Source: Candidatus Poribacteria bacterium (GTDB taxonomy: Bacteria > Poribacteria > WGA-4E > WGA-3G). From it: a stretch of 64,000 nt of DNA. A program made the position numbers and the translations under genes. The notes beneath the pieces were generated by a model. The model worked only from the letters and a program-made list of their open reading frames with translations. It was not told the origin of the DNA and did not search any database. The DNA lies in contig JAJEAG010000059.1 in assembly GCA_022824265.1 (NCBI GenBank), positions 8,736 to 72,735 on the forward strand. The letters are read 5' to 3'. Below are positions 4,053 through 30,046 of this stretch, piece by piece (positions within the stretch are counted from its first letter, which is position 1; each line of letters opens with the position of its first letter).

Positions 4053-4070
4053 AAATCCGTTGCGGGTATA

Positions 4071-5522: not shown

Positions 5523-5546
5523 AATTTACTTCACAAAGGAGAAAGT

Positions 5547-6233
5547 ATGTCAAAACAATTACAAGAACTACTTGACTTAGAAACTGCACCTATTGCAGTA
5601 ACATTCCACGAGGCACAACCTGATGGTGTTTCCCGTGTGGAAAAAGTTGAAGCATCAGGTTGCACCTATTGGAAACGCGCATCAGAAGGAAAAACCTTTT
5701 ACACAGAAGCATCTGACCATTACAACTGTCCAATAGGGTGTTATACTCATAATGTCGAACTACCCGATGAACAAATGAAGGAGTTGGAAAACACTCTTGG
5801 ATTAATGGGTGAACTCGGTTATATTAGTATGGATGAAGTCCCCGGTATCCCTCGTCAAGAAAATACGTTTCAAAACGCAGTCTACTCCCCATTAGCAGAC
5901 ACACAAGACATACCGGATGTTGTTATTATCTCTGGCACGCCAAAGCAGATGATGCTCTTAGTTGAAGCCGCGACCGCTGCAGGAATAGAGATAGAAAACG
6001 GCATCATGGGAAGACCAACCTGTGCTGTTATACCTGCTGTTATTCAGTCTGATGGAGGCGCAAGTAGTCTGGGATGCATTGGTAACCGAGTTTATACTGC
6101 GCTCTCTGACGATGATTTCTACTTAGCTTTCCCAGGCAAACATATTGATGCTATTATAGATAAGTTAGAGACAATTGTGAATGCAAACCATGCATTAGCG
6201 GAATATCATCAGCAACGGCAAGAGGAAATCTGA
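5547..6233 (+). CDS. DUF169 family protein
   Basis: 228-aa ORF with a strong SD (aaaggagaaagtATG). Cys-containing motifs (ASGCTYW, NCPIGCY, PTCAVIP, LGCIGNR) are typical of DUF169/COG2043. Its stop overlaps the next gene's start (TGAATG). Confidence 0.7.
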   Translation: MSKQLQELLDLETAPIAVTFHEAQPDGVSRVEKVEASGCTYWKRASEGKTFYTEASDHYNCPIGCYTHNVELPDEQMKELENTLGLMGELGYISMDEVPGIPRQENTFQNAVYSPLADTQDIPDVVIISGTPKQMMLLVEAATAAGIEIENGIMGRPTCAVIPAVIQSDGGASSLGCIGNRVYTALSDDDFYLAFPGKHIDAIIDKLETIVNANHALAEYHQQRQEEI

Positions 6234-7025
6234 ATGAAAAGCGTTGCTGTGATTACCGGTGCCGCAAGTGGCATCGGACGCGGTATGGCGGAACGGTTCG
6301 CTGCAGAAGGAATGGCAGTTGTCATCGCGGATATTGAGGAACAACCATTAGCCAAACTTGAGGCAGACCTACGGACTAAAGGCGCAACAGTCCTCGCTGT
6401 CCGAACAGATGTCTCAAACGCAGCCGATGTTGAAAACCTTGCTGTACAAACGGTTGATACTTATGGTGCGGTGCATATCCTGTGCAACAACGCAGGTGTA
6501 GTCTGTAGCCGTCCAATCTGGGAACATACCCCCGCCGATTGGGAATGGGTATTAGGTGTCAACCTCTGGGGTGTAATTCACGGTATCCGTGCATTTGTCC
6601 CACGCATGCTAAAGCAAGAAACTGTATGTCATATTGTGAACACTGCTTCTATTCTCGGTTTAGTCCGAGGTCCAGGTGAAGGCATCTATAAAGTCAGCAA
6701 ACACGGTGTCGTTACGCTTTCGGAAACCCTTGCCGACGAGTTAGCACAAAAAGATTCACAAATTCAGGTGCATGTATTGTGTCCCGGTTGGGTGCGCACA
6801 GGTATACTCAATTCCTCTCGTAATCGTCCAGATGTTGAAGCGCACCATAATCGGCAACATATCACCGAATCCCAGAATGTTCGCGCTGAGATGGAAGCAG
6901 GAATCTCTCCTGCCGAAGTGGCAGATCATGTCTACAACGCAATTCAGACAGGTACATTCTATATTCACACACACCCTGAACATAAAGCGTGGATCCGCGC
7001 CCGTATGGAAGGTATTCTCGGTTAG
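6234..7025 (+). CDS. SDR family oxidoreductase (short-chain dehydrogenase/reductase)
   Basis: TGAASGIGRG Rossmann motif, NNAG, and the catalytic Y-x3-K (YKVSKHG). Confidence 0.9.
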   Translation: MKSVAVITGAASGIGRGMAERFAAEGMAVVIADIEEQPLAKLEADLRTKGATVLAVRTDVSNAADVENLAVQTVDTYGAVHILCNNAGVVCSRPIWEHTPADWEWVLGVNLWGVIHGIRAFVPRMLKQETVCHIVNTASILGLVRGPGEGIYKVSKHGVVTLSETLADELAQKDSQIQVHVLCPGWVRTGILNSSRNRPDVEAHHNRQHITESQNVRAEMEAGISPAEVADHVYNAIQTGTFYIHTHPEHKAWIRARMEGILG

Positions 7026-7086
7026 TTTATGTTATTCTACCTGTTTTATATATGGTGAACTTTGTAAATAAAGGGACTTATGTTCT

Positions 7087-7151
7087 GTAGGAGCGATCTC
7101 CGAATCGCGACGATACTCATTGATAGTCGGGAATCGGAGTTCCCAACCTAC
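7087..7151. repeat. Inverted pair of REP-like palindromic elements with a 5' GTAG head (gtaggagcgatctccgaatcgcgac / rc tgtaggttgggaactccgattcccgac)
   Basis: Seen directly. The first unit is identical to 54781-54805. The second unit on the opposite strand has the same GTAGG+stem-loop architecture. Confidence 0.6.
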
Positions 7152-7299
7152 ATCTCTATATGTTCCATTAATTCTAAAGTTCACCATAAACGAATCTAAA
7201 CAGATTTATTTCAGGAGAAACTAATCCTGGTAATCCTATAATCCTGAAAATCTTGGTTCTGACAAAACAACCATACATATCTATATCTCTGCATTGCCG

Positions 7300-7329
7300 T
7301 TGACAAAATCAACTTTTTCATTGTATACT
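7300..7329 (+). promoter_or_regulatory. candidate sigma-70 promoter (TTGACA-18 nt-TATACT) for the 7514 lipoprotein operon
   Basis: ttgacaaaatcaactttttcattgtatact. Same -10 context (tgtatact) as the tRNA promoter at 53362. Confidence 0.45.
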
Positions 7330-7513
7330 ATTTTTAATAGAGTATTAACTTTTGATCTCAAGGAACCTTATATTCTCATCTTACCAAGTGAGAATATAAA
7401 AGCCGAAGATATACCAAGGGTTGAAACGCGGATAATTATTAAACCGCGCTAACTGGCGAACGAAACCTTTTTATCAACCCATGATCGTTAATAATTCAAG
7501 AGGAGAGATTTAC

Positions 7514-8014
7514 GTGTTTCGCTTAAAATTGAAATTACGAGCAGTTATTCTCGTCTGCATCTGCATACTCACACTGCTTGCATGCGGAACAGGGGAAATC
7601 CAAAATTTTGAAGGTATCAGCATCATATCTGAATCGCGTATTGATCGGATAAACATCACCGTTTATCTTACTGATAAACATGGAGTTCCACTAATATGGA
7701 ATCAAAGTATTCTTAGTCCAAGTGTCGGTGTTAGCACTATTTCAGACGCTGACTTTATCACACACGCAAAAATCTATTCAATGCGCAACGGTGAGAAACA
7801 TCGGTTAGTTTACGATGAAAGGCTTGTTGATGTGCGATGGGGACAGGAACCAAACAGCCTTAATAGAATCCTGAAGGCAGAAATACCGCGCGCGCTAATT
7901 GATGAAGACCCAGACCGTGATACGAGAAATGGAGTTATCACTGTTGAAGTAAAGACAGAAAAACAGGGTCCTTTCACGGATACCGTGGAAGAAACTGCTA
8001 TATATAGAAAATAA
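7514..8014 (+). CDS. putative lipoprotein (signal peptide + LLACG lipobox)
   Basis: SD agaggagag 6 nt before GTG 7514. The N-terminus is VFRLKLKLRAVILVCICILTLLACG. The track ORF starts at the upstream ATG 7481. Confidence 0.5.
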   Translation: MFRLKLKLRAVILVCICILTLLACGTGEIQNFEGISIISESRIDRINITVYLTDKHGVPLIWNQSILSPSVGVSTISDADFITHAKIYSMRNGEKHRLVYDERLVDVRWGQEPNSLNRILKAEIPRALIDEDPDRDTRNGVITVEVKTEKQGPFTDTVEETAIYRK

Positions 8015-8016
8015 CA

Positions 8017-8874
8017 ATGCCTATACACACACAAGACTATCGACATTGGGAAGGGACGCTAAACCCTCAAAAATATACACGGTGGTGGGTTATCGCAAAA
8101 GCTGAATTGAAACTACTCGCAAAACGCAAAATCGTCCGACTAATTATTGCGATTCCACCGGTTATTTACATCATAGTGCACGCAGTAATGATCTACTTAT
8201 ACAACCTGTTTGAAGCGGTTGATTTTCCCTTTAAGGTAGACTCAGCGTTTTTTCAGCACTTTATTTTTAGAATTGAGTTTATATCAGGACTTTTTGTTGC
8301 CATAATTGCAATTTTTGGGGGTGCAGGGTTAATTGCCAACGATCTAAAGAGCAACGCACTTTCCCTTTACCTATCTAAACCAATTTCATGGGTAGATTAC
8401 CTCATCGGAAAATTTGCTGCAGTCGGTATATTGCTTACATGCATAACGTTGTTACCCGGGATGTTGCTATTTCTGGAACAACTGTTGTTATCCGATTTTA
8501 ACTTCTTTAAAGAGAATTTCTGGATAGTTTTCTCCATTATCGGCTATTCAATAGTCGTCACCACTATCACGAGCCTACTGATGTTGGTCTTCTCATCACT
8601 AACAACAAATTCTCGGTATGCGACCATCGGTTTTTGTGCAGTTTGGTTTGGATTACCTGTCCTCCACGCCATCCTCATAATAACTCTTCGAACGAGCAAA
8701 GTTGCTTTAGTCTCTATTTGGGCAAACTATGATCGTCTTGGTTCAGTCCTTTTCGCTTCAGATAATAGCTACACCACACACTGGTCTATCACGCTCCTGA
8801 TATTAAGTGCGTTGACTGTCGGCTGTATCCTCGTTCTTAGACATCGGATACGTGCTGTAGAGATCGTCAAATAG
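8017..8874 (+). CDS. polytopic membrane protein, ABC-2-type permease-like
   Basis: N-terminal RWWVIAKAELKLL, as in ABC-2 permeases, with about 6 hydrophobic helices. There is a 2-nt gap to the upstream lipoprotein gene. No ATPase gene is adjacent. Confidence 0.5.
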   Translation: MPIHTQDYRHWEGTLNPQKYTRWWVIAKAELKLLAKRKIVRLIIAIPPVIYIIVHAVMIYLYNLFEAVDFPFKVDSAFFQHFIFRIEFISGLFVAIIAIFGGAGLIANDLKSNALSLYLSKPISWVDYLIGKFAAVGILLTCITLLPGMLLFLEQLLLSDFNFFKENFWIVFSIIGYSIVVTTITSLLMLVFSSLTTNSRYATIGFCAVWFGLPVLHAILIITLRTSKVALVSIWANYDRLGSVLFASDNSYTTHWSITLLILSALTVGCILVLRHRIRAVEIVK

Positions 8875-8887
8875 ACTATTTATTCTA

Positions 8888-9745
8888 TTACTTTAATCTG
8901 GCACCGTTTGCATCCCACATTTCCTGTTCTGAATATAACTGAGGCGGTGTTATGGGTGTTAACGTCGGTTGCCAATCTGGTCGGTATTGTTGAACCAGTC
9001 GCACGGCATTTTGATAAGCAATCCGTTCCTTCGTTTCGTCGTCAAGGTTCGCTGATTCTATTTGCGATTGGACTAAGCGGAAATCGTAATACGGCAGGTC
9101 ACTACCGAACATAAGTCTCTCTTTACAGAGGTTATTCACAAGATGCACTAAGTCCCAACTTTCATCTCCAGGAGGCTTTTGTGCAATATCATACCAAATA
9201 TTCTCCTGCTTTGCACAATGTGCAATGGCATCAAGTTGTCCTGCTTTATTCATTGAAACATGTCCGATGATGAAAGTTATTGACGGAAATCTGTTCGCAT
9301 ACGCAGCGATATTTTGCGTTGAACCTGCCTGATGCAGTAGGCACAATCCGTTGTGCATTCCCACAACTTCAAGGAACGCATGTAATTCACCCCCAAGCGA
9401 ATGACCCGACAACGCAGGATGACATACAAATCCAACTAAACCGTCCTCCTGCATAGCTCTATCAAGTTCGTCAACACCTGCTTGTTCATGCCGAACTTCC
9501 ACAATTCCAAGTCCGATAGGGAAACGTTCTGGATACTTTCGGCAAGCATTTGCGATTGTCTCGTTCTGAGTCCTAGTGTCTAATACACCGCGCGCTTGAG
9601 GTCCACCAGCCGTAGGACACGGAATCGCACCGATAACGTCGGCAGAAGCCATCCGTGCCAAACACCTACCAACACTTTGTCCAATAACCGGGGCACGAGA
9701 TACTGTCATACCGATATGACAATGCACATCAAAATAGGGTCGCAT
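8888..9745 (-). CDS. amidohydrolase-2 family metal-dependent hydrolase (TIM barrel)
   Basis: MRPYFDVHCHIG N-terminal His motif and overall similarity to PF04909-type hydrolases. Confidence 0.75.
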   Translation of the reverse strand: MRPYFDVHCHIGMTVSRAPVIGQSVGRCLARMASADVIGAIPCPTAGGPQARGVLDTRTQNETIANACRKYPERFPIGLGIVEVRHEQAGVDELDRAMQEDGLVGFVCHPALSGHSLGGELHAFLEVVGMHNGLCLLHQAGSTQNIAAYANRFPSITFIIGHVSMNKAGQLDAIAHCAKQENIWYDIAQKPPGDESWDLVHLVNNLCKERLMFGSDLPYYDFRLVQSQIESANLDDETKERIAYQNAVRLVQQYRPDWQPTLTPITPPQLYSEQEMWDANGARLK

Positions 9746-9765
9746 AAGTACTCCTCTCTAAAACG

Positions 9766-10533
9766 TTAGAATTCCGGGACAGATTCATAAGTATTATACC
9801 CATCTGTTCTATCCACACCTTGCACAAGATAAATGTTGTGTGTTCGCCGCCAATTCGCACCGTGAAATTGCACATTTGCAGGCATGTAACGCATCGTATA
9901 ACCACACCGACGTTTTTGTGAGGCATTCGGACTGGAATTGTGAATTGTCCACGCATCGTGAAAATGACATTCACCCACCTCAAGTTCAAGGTTAACTGCC
10001 TTTGTCCCGTCCAAGTCTGCCTCTACAACTTCGCTTCCAAAGAGATTATTGTCCCGATCTACCTTTTCATAACGACGGTCGCGCAAATTGTGACTACCAG
10101 AAATAACACGCATGCACCCGTTTTCTATCTTGGATTCATCCACTGCTAACCACATTGTAATGACATGCATCGGTTCCAGCATTTTGCCCCAATAGACACC
10201 GTCCTGATGCCATGGTACCTCCATACCGTCCTTTTCGCGTTTGCTGATAAAGTGACTTGACCAAAGTACAATATCAGGTCCGATAAATCGCTCAATAACC
10301 TTCAACACATTTGGATGTGTGAGATATTTGAAAAGATATGGATGTTCAAAGTGTGGTACATCCATCTGTTCCGGACGTCTTCCTTCGGGTAAGTTTTCAA
10401 TCATTACATCAACATAATCACGAAGTTCATCTAACTCTGGTTCTGTGAAAATTCGTCCAAATGTGATATATCCATTTTCCTTGTAAAATTGTACCTGTTC
10501 CTCAGAGACTGTTGTTTGTGTTTCCCAACTCAT
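9766..10533 (-). CDS. phytanoyl-CoA dioxygenase (PhyH) family protein
   Basis: YKENGYI..., WHQDGVYWG, and an H-x-D...H Fe/2OG-like pattern. Confidence 0.8.
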   Translation of the reverse strand: MSWETQTTVSEEQVQFYKENGYITFGRIFTEPELDELRDYVDVMIENLPEGRRPEQMDVPHFEHPYLFKYLTHPNVLKVIERFIGPDIVLWSSHFISKREKDGMEVPWHQDGVYWGKMLEPMHVITMWLAVDESKIENGCMRVISGSHNLRDRRYEKVDRDNNLFGSEVVEADLDGTKAVNLELEVGECHFHDAWTIHNSSPNASQKRRCGYTMRYMPANVQFHGANWRRTHNIYLVQGVDRTDGYNTYESVPEF

Positions 10534-18141: not shown

Positions 18142-21100
18142 TTATAGCCGATCATAACCATAACCGTTTCCAGTAATCTCAAAGAGTGCAGATGCAGCAA
18201 GGAAATGAATATCAGCATCTGTGTCTTCCAATACTGATTCCAGAACTTGTATAGTGCTTACGTTCTTTGCATCTGCCATTGCTCTAATCAGGTCAATTTG
18301 AAACGCGCGTTCAGTTTTATCAGCATATAACGTGGTAAGTTTTTGCACAAGTGCTGAAACAGCATCATTCGTAGCAATTTTCCCGAGTGCGCGTGCAGCA
18401 TCTCTGCGGATTTCAATATGGTTTTCATCATTGTTCATGATTTCAATAAGAGCGTCAGTTGTGGAAGCGTCTGCAAGTTCACCTAATGCTTGTGTTGCTA
18501 ACCTACGAACATCTTTATTGTTCTCATTTTCACCGTTTGCTACGAGCACAAGGTCGTTTGTCAATGCAACTGTATTTGTTTCACCAATTTTACGAGCAGT
18601 ATCCTTGCGTGTATCCACGTCTGGATCAGAAAGTGCTTCTCTGAGTTGTGAGACATCAAGGGAACGCGTGCGTCCTAAAGCGACTGAAGCTGCGTTTCTG
18701 ATAGGATTCCCTTCCCATTTGTCATCCACGCGCGCCTGCAATTTTCCCGAAATGAATTCAGGTAGATTATGTTTTTTTGCAGCCCCAACGATAATTCTCC
18801 AACTCCAATTCCGTTTTCTATCATTAAGAGCCAAATTGCGTCTGTTTGCAGCATCTTCAAGGGCAATAATATATTCCGTGTCATCAATGAGACGATTGGC
18901 AAGTGCGTTTGTCGCTTCTATACCACCAATTTGTCCTAAGGCAACAGCGGCTTTCATTCGAGGGGAAGCATTTGCTAATACAGCTGTGCTGGCATCTAAA
19001 GGAATCCGCTTATCCTCTAAGATTGGAATTAGTTTTGATACGGCTTTCGTACTTTCCAGTTTGCCAAGTGCTATGATGGCATTGTTGGAGATATTGCCTA
19101 TGCGTCCATCAACTGCACGGAGTAGAAGGTCCTCGGAAGTTTGATCACCGATATTACCCAGTGCCGTAACCGCCGCAGCACGGATAGCATCAGTCTCTAA
19201 AGGGTTCTCAACCATTTCGCTGAGTTGAATAACCGATTTCGCATCTCTTATACCTCCCAAAGCAGCGACCGCCTGTAAACGGACAGCACTGTTTTCATCA
19301 TTGAGTGCATTTCGAAGGATAGGAGCTGCGCGTTCGTCGCGAAGGGCATTCAACGAGGCAACGGCTGCAGCGCGTATAGATTTCGATTCTTCTCTGTTTT
19401 CCAGAATTGCTATTAAAGGTTCTACTGTCTTTCTATCTTTGAAGCCTCCAAGCCGAGTAACAACTTCCTTGCGAATAACATAACTCGGATTATTCAATTC
19501 AGCAAGCATCGTATCCAATGCTGAACTGTGGTGAATGACACCAAGCATATAAATGATTGCCCAATGAGTCCATTCATCATCAACAGTTTTGAGGGCATCA
19601 AGTAGAAATTCTGTTGTCGTTGCATTTCCGTTTATTAGGAGTGCACCGATTACCTCGTTTTGAACAGATTGAACTTCATGACCATCTTCAAAGTTGCCTC
19701 GTCCCTTTTTAACAATTTCAACGAGTGCTTTGTCAGCAAGTGTTGGACTAATTTCTCTTAGTGCCTTAGTCGCTTCAAGACGTGCTGTTTCATACTTATC
19801 AGTCTTGATTATATCAATTAATGGTTCAACGCTTTTAGCAGATTTAATTGTTCCTAACGCAATGGCTGCTTCTTGACGGACAACCCCCTGTTTTTCCTTC
19901 TTTAGAGCAGTAATAAGCGCATCAACTGCTACGTCACCACCAACCCTACCGAGTGCCCATGCGGCACTACGTCGTACTGTTGCACGTTGATCATCAACCA
20001 ATGCATTCGTTAGTGGTTCAACGACGGTATCACCTTTGAAAATACCGAGTGCGCGTGCAGCTTCACTACGAACAAGACTGGGTATGGGTTTGAGTTCACC
20101 CCAAATCCGATAGTATGGACGCCGATATTCTGTTGTCCATTCGATATTCAGAGAATCAAGATGTGATCTAAGTGCATCAAGTGTCTTATACTTCCGTTTC
20201 ATGTGACGCTGAAAATCGGATATCTCATCGAATTGCATGGACAATACCCAAAGTAAGACGGGAAGTGTTTCTGTGTCTTTAATACGGCTTAGAACCTTTA
20301 CAGCGTTTGATCGGATCACAGCACTTGTTTCATCACTAAGTATGAGCAATAGCATCGGTTGTATAGCCTCTGTCGGTTTCATTTGCCACAAGGCGTTGAT
20401 AGCAGCGGATCTGACCGTTTCCCGTCGCAGCTTATCCATTGAAATCGCAATCAATTTCTCAACATTTTCTTTAGTAGTGACATTTATTTTACTGAGTGCT
20501 TCCGCTGCCTGTGTAACTGTCGTATCATCAAGTTGGAGTGCTACAGTAAGTGCAGTGACAGCAGTATTGTTAGGACCGCGTGCACGCATGTTACCAAGCC
20601 CTTTAGCTGCAATAGCTTTCACCTCTTTGTTGGCATCACCAGTCAAGATGTTAATGAATGGTTGTATTGCGCGTCTATCCCCAATTGTACTCAAAGCATT
20701 TGCAGATTCTAATTGAACAAGATATTCACCCGTTTGCAGCGCGTCTATAAGTGCTGGTACCGCTGCTCCTCGCATTGTAATTAGCGCGGTAAGTGCTGCA
20801 CCCTTTAGGTCTTCGTCTGCCAATAGTTGAATTATAGAAACAACTGCTTCTTCCGCCCTGATTATACCCAGAGTACTAATCGCAGCAGATTGTACTCGCA
20901 AACGGTATTTTTTCATCCAAGAATCGTCAATAAACGCACTCGCTATATATTGATATTGTTCTGAAAAACCGTTATCTACATCTGGAATGATATTGTTTGC
21001 GCGGGTTTCAAGCACGGCTAAAAGCGGTGTGATCGCTGGTTCACCAATTCTATCCAGAGCAACTATAGCAGTGTCTTTGACGTAACCATTAGAATCGGCT

Positions 21101-22020
21101 AAAAGCTTGATTAAATCGTCAACTGCTGCTTCTGCTTGGAGTTTTCCCAGAAGTTTCGCAGCATGCATCCGAACTTGAGCATTGTTGTTTCTTGTTGCCA
21201 GCTGTAGTATTGAAACTATTTCCGGATTAAGTTGGAATTTAGGCTTACAGAGTGCTCCTACCGCAACAATCGCGCTATAGGCGGCTTCTGGTGCTTCATC
21301 TGTTTTGGATAGAATTGACTTATAGGTTGAAATCAGTTCACTGTTTTGCAGTGTTCCTAATTCTCTAATTGCTGCTTTTCTAATCTGAGGGTCTTGGTGT
21401 TGTATAGCGGATTTTAGTAGCGTAACATAATTAGAATCCACACCATCTGTTTTGTTCTTTAGTCGTTGTAATAGGTGTGAAACTGCAACGTGGACACCTT
21501 GTTGATAACATTTTTGACTTTCTAACAGCGCAACTGCAACGACTGAATCCTGTCTCTTTGCTAAGTCTGTTAACAATGTGGGTTGTTTCTCAACTGCCAT
21601 TGCGAGTGAAGTAGCAAGCAAACCTGAAATCGAGTTCCGTGATCTGATAAGTCGTTCCTGCCGGTTTAGTTCGTCAGAATCGGGGTCATCCAGTATGGTA
21701 ATTGCTCGGATATCTGTATTCAACGTTTCAAGATGTGCCAACGCTTGAACCATGGCTTGGTGCCAACTGCTTGCATCTGCACTGTTTCGTAACTGCAATA
21801 GTCGATTGAGATAAACTGCTTCCTGATTTTCTGAATCTTTATCACGGGCTTTTTGTACAGCAGATTCCGCTGCTGTATAATCCTTTTCAACAATTGCTTG
21901 TCTTGCTGAGAGGATAGTTTTGTCTTCTTTTTCTCCACACCCCACGAGAAATGAAATACACAGAATAATATGAATGCAGATTATAGAGTATCGCCTCATA
22001 ACGTATTGCCTCAACAACAT
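18142..22020 (-). CDS. HEAT-repeat (PBS-lyase-type) domain protein, 1292 aa, probable lipoprotein/secreted
   Basis: Dozens of ...VR..AA.ALG.IG...A...L...L.D.. units. N-terminal hydrophobic segment with LVGCG. The antisense ORF 18332..19144 is its low-complexity mirror. Confidence 0.8.
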   Translation of the reverse strand: MLLRQYVMRRYSIICIHIILCISFLVGCGEKEDKTILSARQAIVEKDYTAAESAVQKARDKDSENQEAVYLNRLLQLRNSADASSWHQAMVQALAHLETLNTDIRAITILDDPDSDELNRQERLIRSRNSISGLLATSLAMAVEKQPTLLTDLAKRQDSVVAVALLESQKCYQQGVHVAVSHLLQRLKNKTDGVDSNYVTLLKSAIQHQDPQIRKAAIRELGTLQNSELISTYKSILSKTDEAPEAAYSAIVAVGALCKPKFQLNPEIVSILQLATRNNNAQVRMHAAKLLGKLQAEAAVDDLIKLLADSNGYVKDTAIVALDRIGEPAITPLLAVLETRANNIIPDVDNGFSEQYQYIASAFIDDSWMKKYRLRVQSAAISTLGIIRAEEAVVSIIQLLADEDLKGAALTALITMRGAAVPALIDALQTGEYLVQLESANALSTIGDRRAIQPFINILTGDANKEVKAIAAKGLGNMRARGPNNTAVTALTVALQLDDTTVTQAAEALSKINVTTKENVEKLIAISMDKLRRETVRSAAINALWQMKPTEAIQPMLLLILSDETSAVIRSNAVKVLSRIKDTETLPVLLWVLSMQFDEISDFQRHMKRKYKTLDALRSHLDSLNIEWTTEYRRPYYRIWGELKPIPSLVRSEAARALGIFKGDTVVEPLTNALVDDQRATVRRSAAWALGRVGGDVAVDALITALKKEKQGVVRQEAAIALGTIKSAKSVEPLIDIIKTDKYETARLEATKALREISPTLADKALVEIVKKGRGNFEDGHEVQSVQNEVIGALLINGNATTTEFLLDALKTVDDEWTHWAIIYMLGVIHHSSALDTMLAELNNPSYVIRKEVVTRLGGFKDRKTVEPLIAILENREESKSIRAAAVASLNALRDERAAPILRNALNDENSAVRLQAVAALGGIRDAKSVIQLSEMVENPLETDAIRAAAVTALGNIGDQTSEDLLLRAVDGRIGNISNNAIIALGKLESTKAVSKLIPILEDKRIPLDASTAVLANASPRMKAAVALGQIGGIEATNALANRLIDDTEYIIALEDAANRRNLALNDRKRNWSWRIIVGAAKKHNLPEFISGKLQARVDDKWEGNPIRNAASVALGRTRSLDVSQLREALSDPDVDTRKDTARKIGETNTVALTNDLVLVANGENENNKDVRRLATQALGELADASTTDALIEIMNNDENHIEIRRDAARALGKIATNDAVSALVQKLTTLYADKTERAFQIDLIRAMADAKNVSTIQVLESVLEDTDADIHFLAASALFEITGNGYGYDRL

Positions 22021-22025
22021 AGTGT

Positions 22026-25000
22026 TTACTCCCCAGCAATTACCAATTTCGTCAAGTCAGCAACGACATAGACAGGTTCTGCTATACGGTTTAACAACGC
22101 CAATCGATTTCTACGTAGGTCAGTATCTTCTGCCATAACAAGTACGTCGTCAAAAAACTTGTCTATTGCAGGTTGAAGTCCTGCCAACTTTGTCAACAGT
22201 TCTGAATATGCTCTTGCCTGAATGCTTTTATCAAATTCGAGTTTTGCCTCGGTAATGACAGCATTTAGTTCTTTTTCAGCTTTATCTTTTAGCAGTGCAG
22301 CATCTACGGTTACTGGTACATCTTCAGGCAAGATTCTAAGCACCCGATTGAGTGCATTATATACCTCTTCAAAATTGTGTGTCAAGCGAAATTCAGCAAC
22401 GACACTGGCACGTTCGAGAATATCCACAATATCAACATTACCGACTGCTAAGACAGCATCTGCAAGATCAGGGGCGTATTGATGTGTCTGTAAGATACCG
22501 CGGAGACGTTCTTTAATAAAGTTTAGGACACTTGTTTCTGTATCGTCAACTAATTCTACTTCATACAGAGCAATTGCCTTCCGGACAATTGCATCTAAAG
22601 AGAGTGGCAACTGCCGATCTTGAAGGATACGGATTGTACCGAGTGCATGCCGACGCAACGAGTAAGGGTCCTGTGAACCTGTGGGACGTTCTTCTATACC
22701 GAAGTATCCAACAATCGTATCAAGTTTATCAGCGATAGCGAGGATTGCACCGATCTGAGTTTCAGGTAGAGGTGTATCCGCACCAAGTGGTTGGTAGTGT
22801 TCAGCGATAGCTGTTGCGACCTCATTGGGTTCGTCAGAGTTTTTAGCATAGTATCTGCCAGTAATTCCTTGCAGGGACGGAAATTCAATCACCATTTGGG
22901 TAGTTAAATCAGCCTTGCAGAGCCATGCTGCACGTTCTGCATGATATGTTGTTTCTTCTACCAACTTCAATTCAGCACTGATGAACTTCACCAAATCCTT
23001 TAATCGTTCTGCCTTATCTAAAAGAGAACCGAGTTTGGCGTGGAAGACGACAGCACCTAAACGTTCAACTTTATCGGTAAGACCAGTTTTCTGATCTGCA
23101 CTATAAAAGAACTCAGCATCGTTAAGCCGTGCGTGGAGCACCCGTTCATTCCCGTGCCTCACACCATCACTATTGCCATCTGTTCCATTAGATATAGTGA
23201 TGAATTTCGGAGCGAGTTCAGTATCATTCTTCCACATCGGAAAATAGCGTTGATGCTTTTTCATTGCTGTAATCAGCACTTCAGGTGGTATTTCCAGATG
23301 CGACTCACTGAAATTACCGACAATCGGTTGCGGATTCTCTACGAGATAGTTGACTGTATCCAATAGTTCTTCGTCCAATTTCGGGAGACATCCTTCGGTT
23401 TCAAAAACGGTTCGCACCTGTTTTTCAATTATATCACGTCGTTGCTTTGGACACGCGATAACATCAACTTCCTGTAATTTCTGAATATAGTTGTCCACGT
23501 CTGCGGATGCCAAAGTGATTGGATCGGGATGCAAAGATCTATGTCCATAGGTAATACGACCTGCATGTGCTGCACCGTAAGTGCAGTTGACAACTTCATC
23601 TCCGAGTAATGCAACTAACCAACGTATTGGACGGGCGAAACGGGCAAATGCGTTTGGTTCTTCAGATTCTGTTTCCCACCGCATCGTTTTCGGAAAACGG
23701 AGTGTCTCAATCCATTCGGGTAGTAGTGTTTCCAATAGTTCGTGAGTAGACACACCTTTTTCAAGTTTTGAAGCACAGATATACTCTCCCCGCTCAGTCT
23801 CAACGATACGAAGCTCGGAGATTTCAACACCTTGCGTTTTTGCGAAGCCAATCGCTGCCTTTGTGGGTTCACCGTTTTCATCGTAAGCGATGCTTTTCGG
23901 CGGTCCTGTAACTTCTGTCTCCTGACTTTCCTGCATGGTTTTGACATTCTCTATAGCAAGTGTGATACGGCGCGGTGTCCCCAATGTCTGAATTTCACCA
24001 AACGGTATTCTGTGTTCAGATAGAGAATCGGTTGCAATCTTACTAAGTTGCTCAAGAACAGGCGGCATATAACTTGCTGGGATTTCCTCTGTCCCAATTT
24101 CAAAGAGGAAGTCGGCAGTATCAGGAAGGTCTGATGTAGAGGGTTCGGTGCGGTTAGAAGCCACGTCTATTGTGGTAGAGGTATTTTCCGTGCCAAAACG
24201 TCCCATTAGAGGGTGTTCCATCTCTTCTCGTTGCGTTACATAGGCGCGAGCAATACGTTGTGCCAACCTACGCACACGTTCAATATAACTTACACGTTCC
24301 GTGACGCTGATAACACCCCGTGCATCCAGCATGTTGAAGGTATGTGAGCATCTCAAAACATGGTCAGTTGCGGGGAGAACTAAACCTGCATCTAAACATG
24401 CGTGGGTTTCTTTTTCATAAGTGCTAAACTGGTCAAAAAGCATGTCAACGTTTGCGTGTTCAAAGTTGTAGGTAGAGTATTCCACCTCACTTTGATGATG
24501 TACATCCCCATAGTTCAGGTGTTCATTCCAACGAATATCAAAAAAGGTATCAACATCCTGTAGATAAAGCGCAATACGTTCGAGTCCGTAGGTAATCTCA
24601 GCACAAATCGGGGCAAGGTCTATGCTACCCATCTGTTGAAAGTAGGTGAACTGTGTAACTTCTGCACCATTCCACCAGACTTCCCAACCAAGTCCTGATG
24701 CACCAAGGGTCGGAGATTCCCAATCATCTTCTACAAAACGTATGTCATTTTTTCGTGGAGAGATACCGAGATGATACAGACTCTCAAGGTAGAGTGGTAA
24801 TACATCCTCTGGTGCTGGTTTTAGTATGACTTGATATTGGTAGTATGCGCCAAGACGGAAGGGGTTTTCTGCGTATCTGCCATCGGTAGGTCTTCGGACA
24901 GGTTCTACATACGCTACCTTCCACGGTTCTGGACCGAGGCAACGTAAAAATGTGGCGGGGTTAAATGTGCCTGCGCCGACTTCTATATCGCATGGTTGTT

Positions 25001-25064
25001 GAATAATACATCCTTGTTCTGCCCAAAATTTCTCTAATGCTAATATTATTTCTTGTAAGGTCAT
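22026..25064 (-). CDS. glyQS: glycine--tRNA ligase, fused alpha/beta subunits
   Basis: N-terminus [37 protein letters not shown] is GlyQ. The ~700-aa C-terminal extension is GlyS-like. Confidence 0.9.
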
Positions 25065-25166
25065 ATCTGTTTGTTTGCTGTCTGCTCCGTTTTCGTAAGT
25101 TGTTTCGGGTAATTATTGTAGCATAAGGAGGGTTTATTAAGCAATGGATTTCTGAACTTGATAAAG

Positions 25167-25195
25167 TTGAATAAATGTGAAAGGGTTGTTATACT
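25167..25195 (+). promoter_or_regulatory. candidate promoter (TTGAAT-17 nt-TATACT) for the 862-aa ORF
   Basis: ttgaataaatgtgaaagggttgttatact lies ~37 nt upstream of ATG 25232. Confidence 0.35.
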
Positions 25196-25231
25196 TTAAT
25201 TATATTCTTAATAATTCTAAAAGGTAACTAA

Positions 25232-27820
25232 ATGAACAATATCCGCTTTGATATTCGACTACGACCTATAAGGTTTGGATTTTTAGTTCGTCCCGATGAT
25301 TCAGAAAAGACACTTGAGATTTTTCGACTCAATACATGTCTGTGGGGAGGTATGTTCAATCCGATTATTCCGAAATTTAAAAATGTGCCTTCTTGGTTAG
25401 AAGATGAAGGGTTTCATTATGAGGATGCCAAACACCTCATCAACAGTTATTTGGATTTTTTTGAACCTGATTTTCTTGTTGAAGCAGAAGAAGGTTTAGC
25501 GGATGAATTGGGTTATGATCCGAAAAGAGTTGTAAAACTTGATAATATTCTTGAAGAACTTGGTGGAAACTATGCACATAGATATGGATTAGGTGTCTAT
25601 GGAATCTATAGGGATTTATATGCAAATACTTTTCAGTTTGAACAACGGTATAAGCATAATATTGTATTGGTAAAACCCGCTGATACGGCTTTCACACATT
25701 TGGCTGCGGCTAATTTCGGGAGTTTTCCTGTTGAAGAAAAATTTGAATATTTTGAACACTATTATATGGATATATTTCGTCCAAAACACATAGTGTTTGA
25801 TAGTGCTGCATTTTCAAGTTTGTATCACTCCAATTCCAATTATAGCACCCCTTTAACTATCGGACGCCAAGGTATCTATGTGCAATATAACGGGCCTATG
25901 TTGTCAACACTATTTATACTTAATGCAAAGGAATCAAATGACGTAGTTGATTTTTGGAATCTACGAGCAATACACAAACATGTTGTTGCGATCCCTATTC
26001 AATGGCTTGAAGAACTTGTTCCCTTCTGTAAAAGATTCATAAGTGAAAATCACCTTCGTCTACCCGAAGATCCAAGTCCGAATATAGTTGGTCCCGTTAT
26101 AATGTTTTCACAATCTCTGTCTGAGACTAATATAGAAGAAATTATTGAAAAAAATCTTCTTATTGACGAAGAAGATATTTGCTCAGTAAGAAAATGGGGT
26201 CCAATAGTCTGGTATAAGTATTCAAGGAGACATACTTTTCCTGATATTAAGAATTTAGGGATAGATGAAAATACCCCTGAATATCGACAATTCATGTATA
26301 GAGCATCAGCAAAGTTTCCTAGTCCTACCCGTCCGATCTTGGTGGCGGATAGGAAAATTATGAACATACAAGTTGATAATGACAAACCTGAAATTCGATT
26401 TGATACGATCATTCCAAATTTTGCTAATGTATATTATAACCTATATCGCGTAGCAAATGTTGTCAGATTACAAGATTGGAGTAATGCTCCCCAGTATGTT
26501 AGATTGCGGTATAGAAGTGAATACGATCAAATCGCAACAGTTTTTCCATGTAACTATAAAAATCCTTCTGTTCCGAAATTCCAACCTAATGCTGAACAGG
26601 AATGGGAATTTCTTTTGCCCACTACAGAAGGGTTCGTCATTTTTCCTTCTGATGAACAAATGTATGAACAGTGGGATTTAATGGATGGAACAACTGCATT
26701 CAACCAGTGGTTCAACGACAACCAAATTCCTGCTATCCGTTCTGATGGGGGTAGAACAACGGAACAGATAATTCAAACACTGGAAAGTTTAAAGCGAGGT
26801 GTTAGCTATTTAGCAAATCAAAATATTATTAAATTACTCAATGAAATGGCAAACAGTGCTACCAAAACTGCTCATTATAAAGAATTTGAAAATAAGATTA
26901 ATAATGCGATCACTTACGAAAAACGTAAAAAGCAAACATTTGATAAATTAGTCAAGCATGGTGCAGTAGAACTTGGGTATGAACTTAAGTGTAACAAATG
27001 CAACAGTAAGAATTGGTATTCGGTAAAAGAACTTGATTACGTACTCACTTGTGATCTGTGTCAAAAACAGTTTAACTTTCCTATTACTACTCCTTTAAGT
27101 GAACATTCCAGATGGGCATATCGCGTAGTAGGTCCTTTTGCTCTTCCCGATTACGCCATTGGTGGATATGCTGCATCACTTGCTATTCGTTTCTTTGCAG
27201 ATATTATAGGTGGATATGATAAGGCGGAGATTACTTGGTCGACAGGTCAACAACTTGATTTGCCATCAAGTGAAAAGGTTGAGAGCGATTTTATGTTATG
27301 GTATCGTCGTAAAGAAATTTGGCCCGTAGAAAGAACTTTTTTTGCGTCTGGTCTACCAAATTTTGGCATAGAAAAACAAACCGAAACATTGTTCGGTGAA
27401 GCCAAGAGTTTTGGAAAACCTGGTGAGGATGTTTTCAAACAAGACGATATTGATAAAATGAAATTATTGGCTGAGGCGTTTCCATGTTCTATATTTGTGT
27501 TTGCCACAATGAGAGATGCGACAGATCTAACAAAAGGAGAAATTGAACACATCAGGAAATTAGCTGAATGGGGGCGGGAATATGATAACGAAAGAAAACA
27601 AACACGCGCACCAATTATAATGCTTACAGGAACAGAACTTTTCACAACAGGTTCTTTAAGGAGTTCGTGGGAAGAAAAAGGTGGACAACATAGGAAATTG
27701 AGTGACCGAACTTCGTTAGGAATCCCCGATCTGAGAATATTGGCAGATATTACACAGTTTTTATATTTGGGAATGCAGCCTCACGGTTCAAGAGTAAGAG
27801 AAATTATAGATTCAATTTGA
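25232..27820 (+). CDS. large hypothetical protein (862 aa) with an internal Cys4 zinc ribbon; AT-rich relative to flanks
   Basis: Clean 2.6-kb ORF. CNKCNS...(17 aa)...CDLCQ ribbon. No motif I can assign. Visibly lower GC than the flanking glyQS and sulfatase genes. Confidence 0.7.
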   Translation: MNNIRFDIRLRPIRFGFLVRPDDSEKTLEIFRLNTCLWGGMFNPIIPKFKNVPSWLEDEGFHYEDAKHLINSYLDFFEPDFLVEAEEGLADELGYDPKRVVKLDNILEELGGNYAHRYGLGVYGIYRDLYANTFQFEQRYKHNIVLVKPADTAFTHLAAANFGSFPVEEKFEYFEHYYMDIFRPKHIVFDSAAFSSLYHSNSNYSTPLTIGRQGIYVQYNGPMLSTLFILNAKESNDVVDFWNLRAIHKHVVAIPIQWLEELVPFCKRFISENHLRLPEDPSPNIVGPVIMFSQSLSETNIEEIIEKNLLIDEEDICSVRKWGPIVWYKYSRRHTFPDIKNLGIDENTPEYRQFMYRASAKFPSPTRPILVADRKIMNIQVDNDKPEIRFDTIIPNFANVYYNLYRVANVVRLQDWSNAPQYVRLRYRSEYDQIATVFPCNYKNPSVPKFQPNAEQEWEFLLPTTEGFVIFPSDEQMYEQWDLMDGTTAFNQWFNDNQIPAIRSDGGRTTEQIIQTLESLKRGVSYLANQNIIKLLNEMANSATKTAHYKEFENKINNAITYEKRKKQTFDKLVKHGAVELGYELKCNKCNSKNWYSVKELDYVLTCDLCQKQFNFPITTPLSEHSRWAYRVVGPFALPDYAIGGYAASLAIRFFADIIGGYDKAEITWSTGQQLDLPSSEKVESDFMLWYRRKEIWPVERTFFASGLPNFGIEKQTETLFGEAKSFGKPGEDVFKQDDIDKMKLLAEAFPCSIFVFATMRDATDLTKGEIEHIRKLAEWGREYDNERKQTRAPIIMLTGTELFTTGSLRSSWEEKGGQHRKLSDRTSLGIPDLRILADITQFLYLGMQPHGSRVREIIDSI

Positions 27821-27865
27821 GATAAAAATTATCAACGCAATTGAGATTAAACAAAATACACCTCA

Positions 27866-28090
27866 TTACAGTAGGTAATGCATTCCCTCTGGTAGTTCAC
27901 CAGTATAATGTATCGCTGCGCCACCTTCATAATGTCCAGAAGCTTCATAAACATCGTCCCGAGATTTACTATGGACGGCAACAATTCCTGATAACAACTC
28001 GGTATTTTCACTGATTTCACAATCAATAATAAACAACCACTGATCGGGGTATTTCTCAGTCATTTCTTCAAGCGTCATACGTTCCTTTTC
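27866..28090 (-). CDS. small hypothetical protein (74 aa)
   Basis: SD gtaggagaaatataATG at 28090; convergent with the 862-aa gene. The track ORF is extended upstream to 28162. Confidence 0.4.
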   Translation of the reverse strand, partial: EKERMTLEEMTEKYPDQWLFIIDCEISENTELLSGIVAVHSKSRDDVYEASGHYEGGAAIHYTGELPEGMHYLL

Positions 28091-28163: not shown

Positions 28164-29564
28164 TCATTTCAATAATGACCAATCAGGTTCGTCTTCAGGA
28201 TCGCCAAGAGGTCCGTGGGCGTTACGGACGATGCGACGTTGTGCGTCATACCAATCCGTATAGCTTGTGGCAGGTTGGAGTTTATCGTTACGAGCATCCA
28301 TCAGGTTTAGGAGGGTGGTTTCCATCTCATCTGCTAAAGATTGTGCTTCAGAGTTGTCAATCAGGTTGTTCATCTGCAGCGGATCTGATCCAATGTCGTG
28401 CAGCATCCGTTTACCGTTAAGCCATCGTGCATAGCTATGGGTTTTTGTGCGAACACCTCGCCATTCGTTACCATCAACAAGGTAATCGTAGGTTGACCCA
28501 AAGTTCATCGTCAGAACAGCATCTTGTTCATAAGCATCCGTTTCACCACGCCAAGATGCAGACAAATCGTAACCTTCCACTGTGCGAGGTGTCGGAATTC
28601 CGCATAAACCGCAGAGAGAGGGAAATAGGTCTACAGGTGATGTGAGGGTGTCACAGGTTCCATTATCTTCAAAAACACCGGGTAACCGCATGATGAGTGG
28701 TACTTTGATCGATTCCTCGTAAGGTTCTCGCTTTGCCCAGAAATTGAGATTCTGTGCACCACCTTGCGTACCGTGATCAGAACCAAAGACGAGTAATGTG
28801 TTATCCACACGACCCGTTTTTTCAAGATATGCCATCAACTCTCCGAGCATATCGTCTACTGCTAAAATCATAGCAAGATAGTGTCTGTAAGCATTTAACG
28901 AACGTTCTCGTTGGTTGTCTGAAACGTTCTCAGGTAGATGGAGTTCAGCGGGTAGGCGTTCATAGTATTCTTGTGGTGCATATTCGTAGGGTGTCCCGTG
29001 TGCTTGATGTGGAGAGATAAACAGACAGAACGGGGTATCCTTACCTATATCATCCATAAATTGAAATGCGTATCGGTTGAGTGCATCTGTCTCGTATCCT
29101 TCCCATCTTTCGTTCCGCCAATTGTCAAGGTTTACAGTACCATTGAAATAGTCGGTGTGGAAGTTGTAGCCACGCCAATGTTGAAATCCGAGACGGTCAC
29201 GACCTTCAGGGACATAATCGCGTCCACCGATTTCTGGGAATGAACCTGTGTGGAGATGCCATTTACCGACCCATGCTGTGCGATAACCGTTACGATTGAA
29301 AACGTCACCGAGTCCAATTTCATCGTGACGTGTCTTTACGAAATTTATGAGATGACCGGTTGTCTGCGGGTGTCGTCCCGTGAGTAGCATGGAACGGTAG
29401 GGGGTACAGACAGGTGCAGTAGCAATTGCGTTTGAGAAAACGGTGCCTTCTTGTGCGAGTCTATCTATATGTGGTGTTTCAATCTGCTTTTCACCGTATA
29501 CTGGTAATGAGCAGGCACGAATTTGATCTGATAGGAGATATACGATGTTCGGTTTGTTTGTCAT
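28164..29564 (-). CDS. sulfatase (formylglycine-dependent)
   Basis: MTNKPNIVYLLSDQ and the CTPYRSMLLTGRHP C-x-P-x-R signature. The start may instead be the upstream ATG at 29603. Confidence 0.85.
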   Translation of the reverse strand: MTNKPNIVYLLSDQIRACSLPVYGEKQIETPHIDRLAQEGTVFSNAIATAPVCTPYRSMLLTGRHPQTTGHLINFVKTRHDEIGLGDVFNRNGYRTAWVGKWHLHTGSFPEIGGRDYVPEGRDRLGFQHWRGYNFHTDYFNGTVNLDNWRNERWEGYETDALNRYAFQFMDDIGKDTPFCLFISPHQAHGTPYEYAPQEYYERLPAELHLPENVSDNQRERSLNAYRHYLAMILAVDDMLGELMAYLEKTGRVDNTLLVFGSDHGTQGGAQNLNFWAKREPYEESIKVPLIMRLPGVFEDNGTCDTLTSPVDLFPSLCGLCGIPTPRTVEGYDLSASWRGETDAYEQDAVLTMNFGSTYDYLVDGNEWRGVRTKTHSYARWLNGKRMLHDIGSDPLQMNNLIDNSEAQSLADEMETTLLNLMDARNDKLQPATSYTDWYDAQRRIVRNAHGPLGDPEDEPDWSLLK

Positions 29565-29641
29565 GATTATTAGATTGTAATGTATGGGATTTAAAATGCC
29601 CATCCCATGAGAAATAACTATTTGTCATAGTTGATCAAATT

Positions 29642-29815
29642 CATCTGGAGTTAGTCCTGCATGGCGTAAAATAGTGCGTAGTGTCACAATCCGAACTTCA
29701 CGATTGATTTGGAACTATCACTGTACGCACCTCACCTTCGTTTTTACGGACAAACTTTACATGACTTCCACGTTGATGAATCACATTAAAACCTGCTCTT
29801 TCAAGTTTACGTTTA
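29642..29815 (-). pseudogene. hicA: hicA-like toxin gene, disrupted (frameshift plus stop at N-terminus)
   Basis: Minus-strand translation gives QIKRKLERAGFNVIHQRGSHVKFVRKNEGEVRTVIVPNQS*. A +1 frame continues HREVRIVTLRTILRHAGLTPDEFDQL*. Together these resemble HicA (GSH..F...G....VP.H..D.....L..IL.QAGL), but the reading frame is broken and there is no start codon. Confidence 0.55.
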
Positions 29816-30046
29816 ATCTGTCAATAGGATAGTGGTTTCATTAGTAGCGATTTTTGCCTTAAATTTGCGAAGTTTTGGAATCACGGTGGGGTGTGGTTCA
29901 TCAAAATATAGTTCTATAGCTTCTCTAAGGTTGTTGATTGCTTCGTCTTCACTCTTACCTTGACTTGCAACATCTACCTCCAAACATTGCGCAACAAACC
30001 ACCGTCCCTCTTGAGAAATACATGCTGTAAAGGGATAGGTTTTCAT
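29813..30046 (-). CDS. hicB: HicB family antitoxin
   Basis: 77 aa: ...EGRWFVAQCLEVDVASQGKSEDEAINNLREAIELYF matches the HicB/UPF0150 consensus. Confidence 0.7.
   Translation of the reverse strand: MKTYPFTACISQEGRWFVAQCLEVDVASQGKSEDEAINNLREAIELYFDEPHPTVIPKLRKFKAKIATNETTILLTD

Follow-up and report, generated by a model that had tools for sequence, protein, structure and literature searches.

An Undescribed Family of Multidomain Proteins with a Predicted PD-(D/E)xK Nuclease Domain, from a Variable Slot and Type I Restriction–Modification Islands of Poribacteria

Introduction

What might be the role of a long gene that stands apart from its surroundings in base composition and matches no known protein family? 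This question is raised by an 862-residue open reading frame (ORF) at positions 25232–27820 (forward strand) of a 64-kb stretch of DNA, hereafter the window, from contig JAJEAG010000059.1 of a Candidatus Poribacteria metagenome-assembled genome (MAG). The ORF diverges from glyQS (22026–25064, reverse strand) and converges with a sulfatase gene (28164–29603, reverse strand) and a small ORF that lies before it. An original prediction, made from the letters of the sequence, took it for an AT-rich orphan with an internal Cys4 motif, and proposed that it is a horizontally acquired, single-gene defense or accessory determinant, for example of the Abi type.

Here we report that the 862-residue protein belongs to a large family, spread over more than ten phyla, whose members share an invariant Cys4 ribbon, a predicted PD-(D/E)xK nuclease core and a conserved N-terminal domain, and which in many Poribacteria sits inside type I restriction–modification (R-M) operons. 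We hypothesize, with a probability of roughly 55%, that it is a defense-related nuclease: a stand-alone, horizontally mobile, multidomain protein directed against phages or mobile elements.

Results and Discussion

A Large Protein Family That Lacks Annotation

The gene had been described as an orphan without homology, a description that does not survive comparison with current sequence collections. A word-indexed search returned 765 homologues, many of them full-length at 50–86% identity, and an exhaustive search returned 1,692 homologous clusters at 50% identity (475 at E ≤1e-30), nearly all of about 800 residues, a count that is a lower bound for the size of the family. A member is encoded by 357 of the roughly 185,000 genomes that each represent a species (0.2% of species), with hosts among the Poribacteria, Alpha-, Beta- and Gammaproteobacteria (including Legionella, Rhizobium, Psychrobacter, Shewanella and an Enterobacteriaceae isolate), Campylobacterota, Acidobacteriota, Planctomycetota, Spirochaetia, Ignavibacteria, Omnitrophica and a bacterium of the candidate phyla radiation. 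The distribution is patchy across phyla and the neighbor-joining protein tree is incongruent with taxonomy; indeed, the sister group of the Poribacterial proteins is made up of sequences from Nitrosomonas, a gammaproteobacterium and a Nitrospirales MAG. Carriage on mobile elements is sparse: the family gene was found on a single plasmid of 72,556, from Photobacterium, the gene or a distant relative on 5 of 2.9 million viral contigs, and no homologue was found among about 50,000 phage records or in complete Escherichia coli genomes.

Four IMG/VR contigs, whose viral nature is taken from the source collection (L097–L100, at about 8001–10300 in each), encode a distant subfamily of about 760–800 residues at 21–28% identity that keeps the motifs LWGGRFNPI, DLxxxWNLRA, CxxC...CxxC, CExDF, (G/A)ECKD and LTxxEL. 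Since this subfamily carries all the signature motifs, the superfamily is wider than the 1,692 clusters.

In every source the label of these proteins is “hypothetical protein.” The prediction that the protein would match no known family holds: neither the single sequence nor 60 family members gave a match in Pfam, NCBIfam, PADLOC or PHROGs beyond sub-threshold zinc-ribbon hits, PADLOC-DB v2.0.0 gave zero hits at E ≤1 across 5,027 models (including 145 embedded candidates), and phmmer and profile hmmsearch against PDB sequences gave nothing meaningful. Literature searches turned up precedents for the embedding of genes in R-M operons and no description of this family. By these sequence comparisons, the family of the 862-residue protein is large and undescribed. 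One apparent alternative domain fusion, P0261, was rejected: this gene call is either truncated or a chimera with an ABC-3 membrane protein.

The Poribacterial copy in the window appears to be a working member of this family. Its reading frame is long and intact from ATG to stop, as had been predicted, every family-invariant residue is retained, and the ratio of nonsynonymous to synonymous substitution rates against an 86% identical orthologue is 0.24; the gene is under purifying selection. It is also 100% identical to the copy at locus L009, on contig JAJDWI010000112.1. Its content of guanine plus cytosine (GC) is 0.365, whereas the 38 other window ORFs of at least 150 residues average 0.432 (standard deviation 0.032; z = −2.1), and GC at third codon positions is 0.267 against 0.361 (z = −2.6), such that it ranks lowest in GC among all 39. 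The predicted AT-richness therefore stands, but the neighbors lie at 44.5% (glyQS) and 46.1% (sulfatase) and not at the 48–50% once estimated by eye, and the deviation in GC is not accompanied by one in relative synonymous codon usage, which is ordinary (rank 19 of 39).

Predicted Architecture and Conserved Residues

The protein was modeled twice with AlphaFold. A first model, from a shallow alignment of 41 sequences with at least 52% identity, reached a predicted local distance difference test score (pLDDT) of 62, with a poor N-terminal half, whereas a second, from a more divergent alignment of 60 sequences (23–86% identity), reached a pLDDT of 86.3 and a predicted template modeling score of 0.88. 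Conservation was counted over 60 family members, down to 23% identity. Foldseek searches with the better model found no significant neighbor in the PDB and, in BFVD, one borderline and uninformative match, to an uncharacterized protein of Bacillus phage JL. The first model had given noise and weak matches to Can2 (probability 0.2–0.3), and these were gone with the better one. All features described below lie on the forward strand.

The case for a nuclease is carried by residues 619–760 (27086–27511), a predicted PD-(D/E)xK core in which the elements follow the order alpha-beta-beta-beta-alpha-beta (helix 645–658, strands 665–676, 682–695 and 718–725, helix 737–749, strand 754–759), a topology read only from the order of secondary structure in the model and not from coordinates. 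Strand 2 bears E684 (58/60) and D686 (60/60), encoded at 27281–27289, and strand 3 bears E723 (60/60) and K725 (59/60), encoded at 27398–27406, within the context h-h-h-(G/A)-E-x-K-(S/T); both coordinate ranges were checked by translation. The core fold order, the acid on strand 2 and the (D/E)xK of strand 3, by which membership in this superfamily can be judged, are hence all present; the searches found no established PD-(D/E)xK member that resembles it significantly in sequence or structure. When the family profile was compared by hhalign with Mrr of E. coli, the N-terminus of HsdR and McrC, each a single-sequence target, no similarity appeared, an outcome that carries little information with such targets. 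The ExD...ExK pattern in this topology is typical of Hjc/YraN/Mrr-type PD-(D/E)xK nucleases. With these the protein shares the E-x-D of strand 2, the strand 3 motif and the core order, but it differs from them in a preceding Cys4 ribbon and in about 100 conserved residues at the C-terminus. On the strength of the model, the C-terminal domain is thus predicted to be a PD-(D/E)xK nuclease and presumably to share the cleavage chemistry of that superfamily. The following extension (residues 761–862, 27512–27817) is a conserved part of the nuclease domain, with invariant E802 (in the motif LTGxELF) and W813 and a helix bearing T841-Q842-x-x-Y845.

The Cys4 motif noticed in the original prediction is confirmed, and it is a family trait. 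The pattern CNKC...16 residues...CDLC is encoded at 26990–27061 (checked by translation), with cysteine codons at 26990–26992, 26999–27001, 27050–27052 and 27059–27061. The resulting residues, C587/C590 and C607/C610, are all invariant (60/60), and in the model each CxxC sits on a hairpin of a small domain spanning residues 577–618 (26960–27085; strands 579–586, 593–597, 604–606 and 613–615). Sub-threshold profile matches to Zn_ribbon_4, YnfU, Elf1 and YjdM are consistent with a zinc ribbon, and the sequence pattern suggests that it binds zinc. CxxC...CxxC, ExD and ExK are retained down to 21–28% identity.

Preceding the ribbon is a helical domain (residues 486–576, 26687–26959), delimited by the helix and strand pattern of the model and possibly winged-helix-like, to judge from one weak match of GntR type at rank 31 in the Foldseek search with the first model. 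A beta-rich middle domain (residues 362–485, 26315–26686; strands 366–371, 373–381, 387–391, 407–415, 468–470 and 478–482) is the least conserved part of the protein, with a mean top-residue frequency of 0.32, and is a candidate specificity module. It is joined to the N-terminal domain through a lineage-specific insertion or linker (residues 331–361, 26222–26314) with a column occupancy of 0.14, a pLDDT below 50 and predicted disorder.

The N-terminal domain itself (residues 1–330, 25232–26221) is modeled, mostly at pLDDT >90, as a two-lobed, Rossmann-like alpha/beta fold. Its invariant residues, W38-G39-(G40), N43, P47, P79-(D80), G163, D237, (D240), W242-N243 and (R245), sit in the model on loops at strand ends, an arrangement that suggests a putative pocket, either for a ligand (and hence a sensor) or for catalysis. 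Foldseek gave the domain weak and generic matches, of Rossmann and GT-B-like type.

Embedding in Type I Restriction–Modification Islands

In 13 distinct Poribacterial loci (L002, L004, L005, L006, L011, L012, L013, L018, L019, L020, L023, L071 and the short contig L003), the family gene directly precedes hsdS-hsdR on the same strand, at distances of −20 to 265 bp, and hsdM is found further upstream wherever the sequence extends far enough. The order at L023 is simply hsdM, family gene, hsdS, whereas elsewhere variable cargo fills the interval between hsdM and the family gene. This position is stable within a Poribacterial clade whose members are as little as about 47% identical, and in most Poribacteria the gene is probably cotranscribed with hsdS-hsdR. 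The protein shows no Hsd homology of its own, by the absence of Pfam Hsd domains and of an hhalign match to the HsdR N-terminus as a single sequence. The location in hsd operons is not obligate; the window copy and nearly all loci of other phyla lie outside R-M systems.

The cargo that accompanies the gene in these islands includes HEC-03A/B, beside it in nine loci (E = 6e-34 and 6e-108), and also the two genes of a type II R-M system, a gene like PD-Lambda-4_A and the candidate PDC-S11. HEC-03 is a two-gene system for which phage defense has been shown experimentally, seven of nine tested embedded candidates from the same work defended, and type I R-M operons are frequent hosts of embedded genes (10.1101/2024.01.29.577857). 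The same guilt-by-embedding logic that led to the HEC-01 to HEC-09 and PDC candidates (Payne et al.; 10.1101/2024.01.29.577857) points to the present family, whose architecture is distinct from theirs and matches none of their models.

The HEC-03B/A pair, an AAA_15/AAA_21/DUF3696 ATPase with a 168-residue PIN-like protein that starts VIVDTNV, lies immediately upstream of the family gene at 6136–7958 of L002 and likewise in L003, L006, L011, L013, L018, L019, L020 and L071. It is here embedded in a type I R-M operon and not in an Hma system.

A Mobile Cassette in the Sulfatase–glyQS Slot

No R-M gene is present within the window. The gene there forms a 2.7-kb cassette (25152–27863, forward strand) made of the ORF, 80 bp upstream and 43 bp downstream; in blastn comparison with loci L091 and L092, the homologous DNA on the glyQS side ends at 25151 and that on the sulfatase side begins at 27864, and the cassette occupies exactly the place of a protease gene in L091. 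Among close Poribacterial relatives, chosen by their GlyQS orthologues, the slot is empty in L093 (GlyQS 83% identical) and empty except for a 37-residue ORF call in L090 (89%). It holds a 75-residue gene with an Asp_protease_2 gene in L091 (87%), another cassette with a PtuA-like (Septu) ATPase in L092 (87%), and the family gene, 86% identical, in L001/L010 (88%). The sulfatase–glyQS slot thus behaves as a small defense-cargo hotspot. The L092 cassette (4603–6803) combines a truncated-looking, PtuA-like AAA_21 ATPase with three small ORFs.

In the neighbor-joining tree, the window and L010 copies nest inside the R-M-embedded Poribacterial clade, and this copy therefore left the R-M island secondarily. 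The cassette ends carry neither direct nor inverted terminal repeats, nor a signature of a target site, and no flanking homology was found between the cassette and the R-M-embedded copies. Horizontal acquisition, as originally proposed, is borne out by a slot that is empty in equally close Poribacteria and variable in content, by the patchy family distribution and by the incongruent tree. No placement in a well-characterized housekeeping family with conserved synteny emerged either, which favors the general idea behind that proposal.

Contexts outside the Poribacteria and a Persistent AT Bias

Across 88 loci, about 60 of them non-Poribacterial, no conserved neighbor was found outside the Poribacterial R-M island, and the gene therefore travels as a single-gene unit. 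About 60 non-Poribacterial loci lack a type I R-M gene within 10 kb. In about 60 loci, immediate neighbors of housekeeping kind (DnaE, UvrD, FolB, FTHFS, ribosomal protein L17) occur alongside those of defense or mobile kind (AriAB, TIR-TM, AbiEi, a type IIG R-M enzyme, McrBC, HEPN, HipA, the candidates PDC-S31, PDC-S60 and PDC-S68, mad2/mad8, integrases and a terminase). Methyltransferases are sporadic near family genes. At L079 (an unclassified bacterial MAG, 3481–9957), the gene follows by 26 bp the co-directional genes of a DUF1156 protein (978 residues) and a DUF499 protein (990 residues), which we take to be the methylase and the ATPase found in systems of the Hma type. If so, the gene adjoins a multigene defense system in a second, independent case. 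At L048, a Type ISP enzyme lies two genes away.

A full-length member with 33% identity is carried at 8001–10409 of L096 (IMGVR_UViG_2908857009_000002), a bona fide Mu-like prophage with a c repressor, MuA- and MuB-like proteins, endolysin, baseplate and tail genes, where its place is the accessory region that separates the transposition module from the lysis module.

The gene has a lower GC content than its flanks in 95% of 76 loci (L001–L088), by a mean of 6 points and by up to 15, and this persists in hosts of 32% to 73% GC as well as in the Poribacterial clade where the gene looks vertically inherited. Since GC is low even under apparent vertical inheritance, the AT bias is a family trait and not just a mark of recent arrival, which suggests a bias that is intrinsic or selected rather than a simple lag in amelioration.

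A Candidate Defense Nuclease and Its Alternatives

We infer a protein with nuclease activity on a DNA target, gated by a sensor and employed in defense. The predicted PD-(D/E)xK domain (E684, D686, E723, K725 and perhaps E802) would cleave nucleic acid in a metal-dependent manner, with the helical domain and the Cys4 ribbon positioning the nucleic acid, probably DNA. The Rossmann-like domain, with its invariant W/G/N/D/R pocket, and the variable beta-rich domain may sense a cue that marks non-self, be it modified DNA, a ligand resembling a nucleotide or a component of the phage, and thereby gate the nuclease. Copies embedded in R-M islands would provide a second layer that complements type I restriction, whereas in the lineage of the window the gene would have been relocated as the 2.7-kb cassette to the sulfatase–glyQS slot. 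A defense or accessory role, as the original prediction had it, is supported by the contexts in which the gene is found, namely the hsdS-hsdR position, HEC-03, type II R-M, PDC-S11, the Hma-type pair and the Mu-like prophage; the Abi-like version of that role is only one of several readings.

Two more specific accounts fall within the defense reading as sub-cases. The protein may be a modification-dependent, type IV-like restriction endonuclease that cuts (hyper)modified phage DNA escaping type I restriction, which fits because the gene is embedded in R-M islands and has no conserved methyltransferase partner; its C-terminal nuclease also lies behind N-terminal recognition modules, and in E. 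coli K-12 hsdRMS lies between Mrr and McrBC. Type I R-M operons are moreover the known habitat of GmrSD and TgvAB. TgvAB is a type IV system nested in the type I R-M operon of Vibrio cholerae (VPI-2), is independent of HsdR restriction activity and lacks a cognate methyltransferase, and its authors propose that the two systems complement one another (PMC11411939). The likeness lies in non-Hsd genes nested in an hsdM/hsdS/hsdR operon, but the 862-residue protein has no DUF262/DUF1524 (ParB-like NTPase plus HNH) and no sequence or profile similarity to these proteins, and it is one polypeptide with a predicted PD-(D/E)xK domain as opposed to a two-protein system. A predicted nuclease without cognate methyltransferase was thus found, as expected of type IV enzymes, but a recognized reader of modified DNA was not (no SRA, PUA/EVE, DUF262 or Mrr_N hit in Pfam, NCBIfam or PADLOC among 60 members); similarity to Mrr or McrC was absent in hhalign with single-sequence targets, and a Rossmann-like N-terminal domain is atypical of such readers. 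We consider this account unlikely, if the best placed of those discussed here beneath the general defense reading. Ranked just after it, and likewise improbable, is an abortive-infection or “guard” nuclease whose N-terminal domain binds a nucleotide-like signal or senses the inactivation of R-M, as PrrC does, and which once activated would degrade host and phage nucleic acid indiscriminately. This fits because the domain is Rossmann-like with an invariant pocket, whose W, N, D and R suggest ligand binding. Can2 and Card1, effectors of type III CRISPR in which a CARF sensor is joined to a PD-(D/E)xK nuclease, have the same layout, with a Rossmann-like domain at the N-terminus and a restriction-endonuclease-like nuclease behind it, and the weak Can2 matches of the first model point the same way; however, the similarity vanished with the better model, the present protein is double their size and has beta-rich, helical and zinc-ribbon domains in addition, no CARF profile hit was obtained, and no CRISPR or cyclase neighbors occur at the loci examined, nor is any other signal-producing gene conserved nearby. 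PrrC and RloC offer R-M-embedded precedents: these latent anticodon nucleases are encoded in type I R-M loci and step in once restriction has been neutralized. Both are named among ATPase-containing defense systems (10.1101/2024.01.29.577857). The 862-residue protein differs in having neither an ABC-ATPase domain nor an anticodon-nuclease motif, and most family members are not linked to R-M.

Readings outside the defense hypothesis account for part of the same evidence. A selfish or element-maintenance nuclease, homing-like or serving the replication or transposition of an element, would agree with a single-gene cassette that precisely replaces another gene, with a patchy distribution incongruent with taxonomy, and with carriage on a Mu-like prophage and a plasmid and occasional nearby integrases or a terminase. 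We regard it as very unlikely, given the lack of terminal repeats and of a target-site signature, the lack of a conserved recombinase or transposase, the stable operon position in the diverged Poribacterial clade, and a length of about 800 residues with four extra conserved domains, which is unlike homing endonucleases. Still lower in our estimate stands an accessory subunit that serves only the type I R-M enzyme of Poribacteria, such as an alternative nuclease or a regulator working with HsdS and HsdM. The constant position upstream of hsdS in 13 loci, while other cargo varies, and the order hsdM-gene-hsdS at L023 speak for such a subunit; against it count the roughly 60 non-Poribacterial loci that have no type I R-M gene within 10 kb, the copies of the window and of L010, which lie outside R-M operons yet are under purifying selection, and the presence of the gene alone on a prophage and on a plasmid. 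The lowest probability goes to a role in neither cleavage nor defense, in which a metabolic or regulatory enzyme with a catalytic N-terminal domain would carry a noncatalytic, restriction-endonuclease-like C-terminal fold. Although the absence of a significant match to any nuclease, the weak similarity of the N-terminal domain to racemases, dehydrogenases and glycosyltransferases, and the many housekeeping neighbors are compatible with it, the strict invariance of ExD...ExK and of four cysteines in so divergent a family speaks for catalysis and metal binding, and the defense-slot contexts and a distribution of only 0.2% of species also count against it.

A nuclease gene in or near restriction systems, like a single-gene defense cassette, is well known, and it is the family itself that is not described. 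The bolder proposal, that the family represents a new self-contained immune nuclease with a mode of self/non-self discrimination that no described restriction or abortive-infection system shows, we hold to be doubtful, somewhat below the type IV-like and guard accounts and above those outside defense; the N-terminal domain would then be a new sensor of a nucleotide-like signal or a new enzyme that modifies DNA or reads its modification.

Neighboring Genes and Other Features of the Window

The small convergent ORF noted in the original prediction exists (74 residues, 27866–28090, reverse strand), but it is context and not part of the system. It is 81% identical to a counterpart that L091 carries at the same site without the family gene, and it is the surviving first gene of an older module made of the 75-residue gene and an Asp_protease_2 gene. 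Because this module already occupied the site in relatives that lack the family gene, the 74-residue ORF is not its partner, and the roles of sole companion, partner or antitoxin were rejected. A complete sigma-70 consensus (TTGACA-18-TATAAT, 12/12 positions, 28162–28133, reverse strand) precedes it.

The module, whose protease is retropepsin-like and of 130–160 residues, is multicopy in Poribacteria and occupies variable slots, including the R-M island (L091 3906–4531 and 6042–6667; L093 4785–5407; L004 6980–7750). Its 75-residue protein has no family match, and the pair could be toxin–antitoxin-like or defense-associated.

The 862-residue ORF had been credited with its own sigma-70-like promoter. 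A weak candidate is present at 25167–25195 (forward strand; TTGAAT-17-TATACT with a TG extension, 9/12 consensus positions), but 9/12-type matches in the region number 18 against 11.4 ± 3.9 expected from shuffled sequence; since such matches barely exceed those in shuffles, the promoter is plausible and carries no evidential weight.

Two further genes of the neighborhood recur in relatives. Between the sulfatase gene and a PorV-like gene is encoded a 77-residue DUF7387 protein (29813–30046, reverse strand; E = 7e-7) that faintly resembles antitoxins of the RelB/PHD type, and the same family is found at the same place in relatives (L091 3624–3836), followed there by the 75-residue plus protease module. 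Directly downstream of glyQS, a 1,292-residue HEAT-repeat, lipoprotein-like protein (18142–22020, reverse strand), unrelated to the family gene, is syntenic in all Poribacterial relatives examined (L001, L090–L093).

Conclusions

The family described here escapes Pfam, NCBIfam, PADLOC, PHROGs and the PDB, and the N-terminal half of its members is without a detectable structural or sequence relative; its size merits the definition of new domains even if a role in defense does not hold. The hsdM...hsdS-hsdR island and the sulfatase–glyQS slot are clean natural hotspots of defense cargo in uncultivated sponge symbionts. If the defense reading is correct, a widespread single-gene nuclease of about 1,700 clusters in many phyla would join the prokaryotic immune repertoire, its conserved N-terminal domain could expose a new sensing or modification chemistry, and a compact, autonomous nuclease, possibly gated by a ligand or a modification, would make a useful tool.

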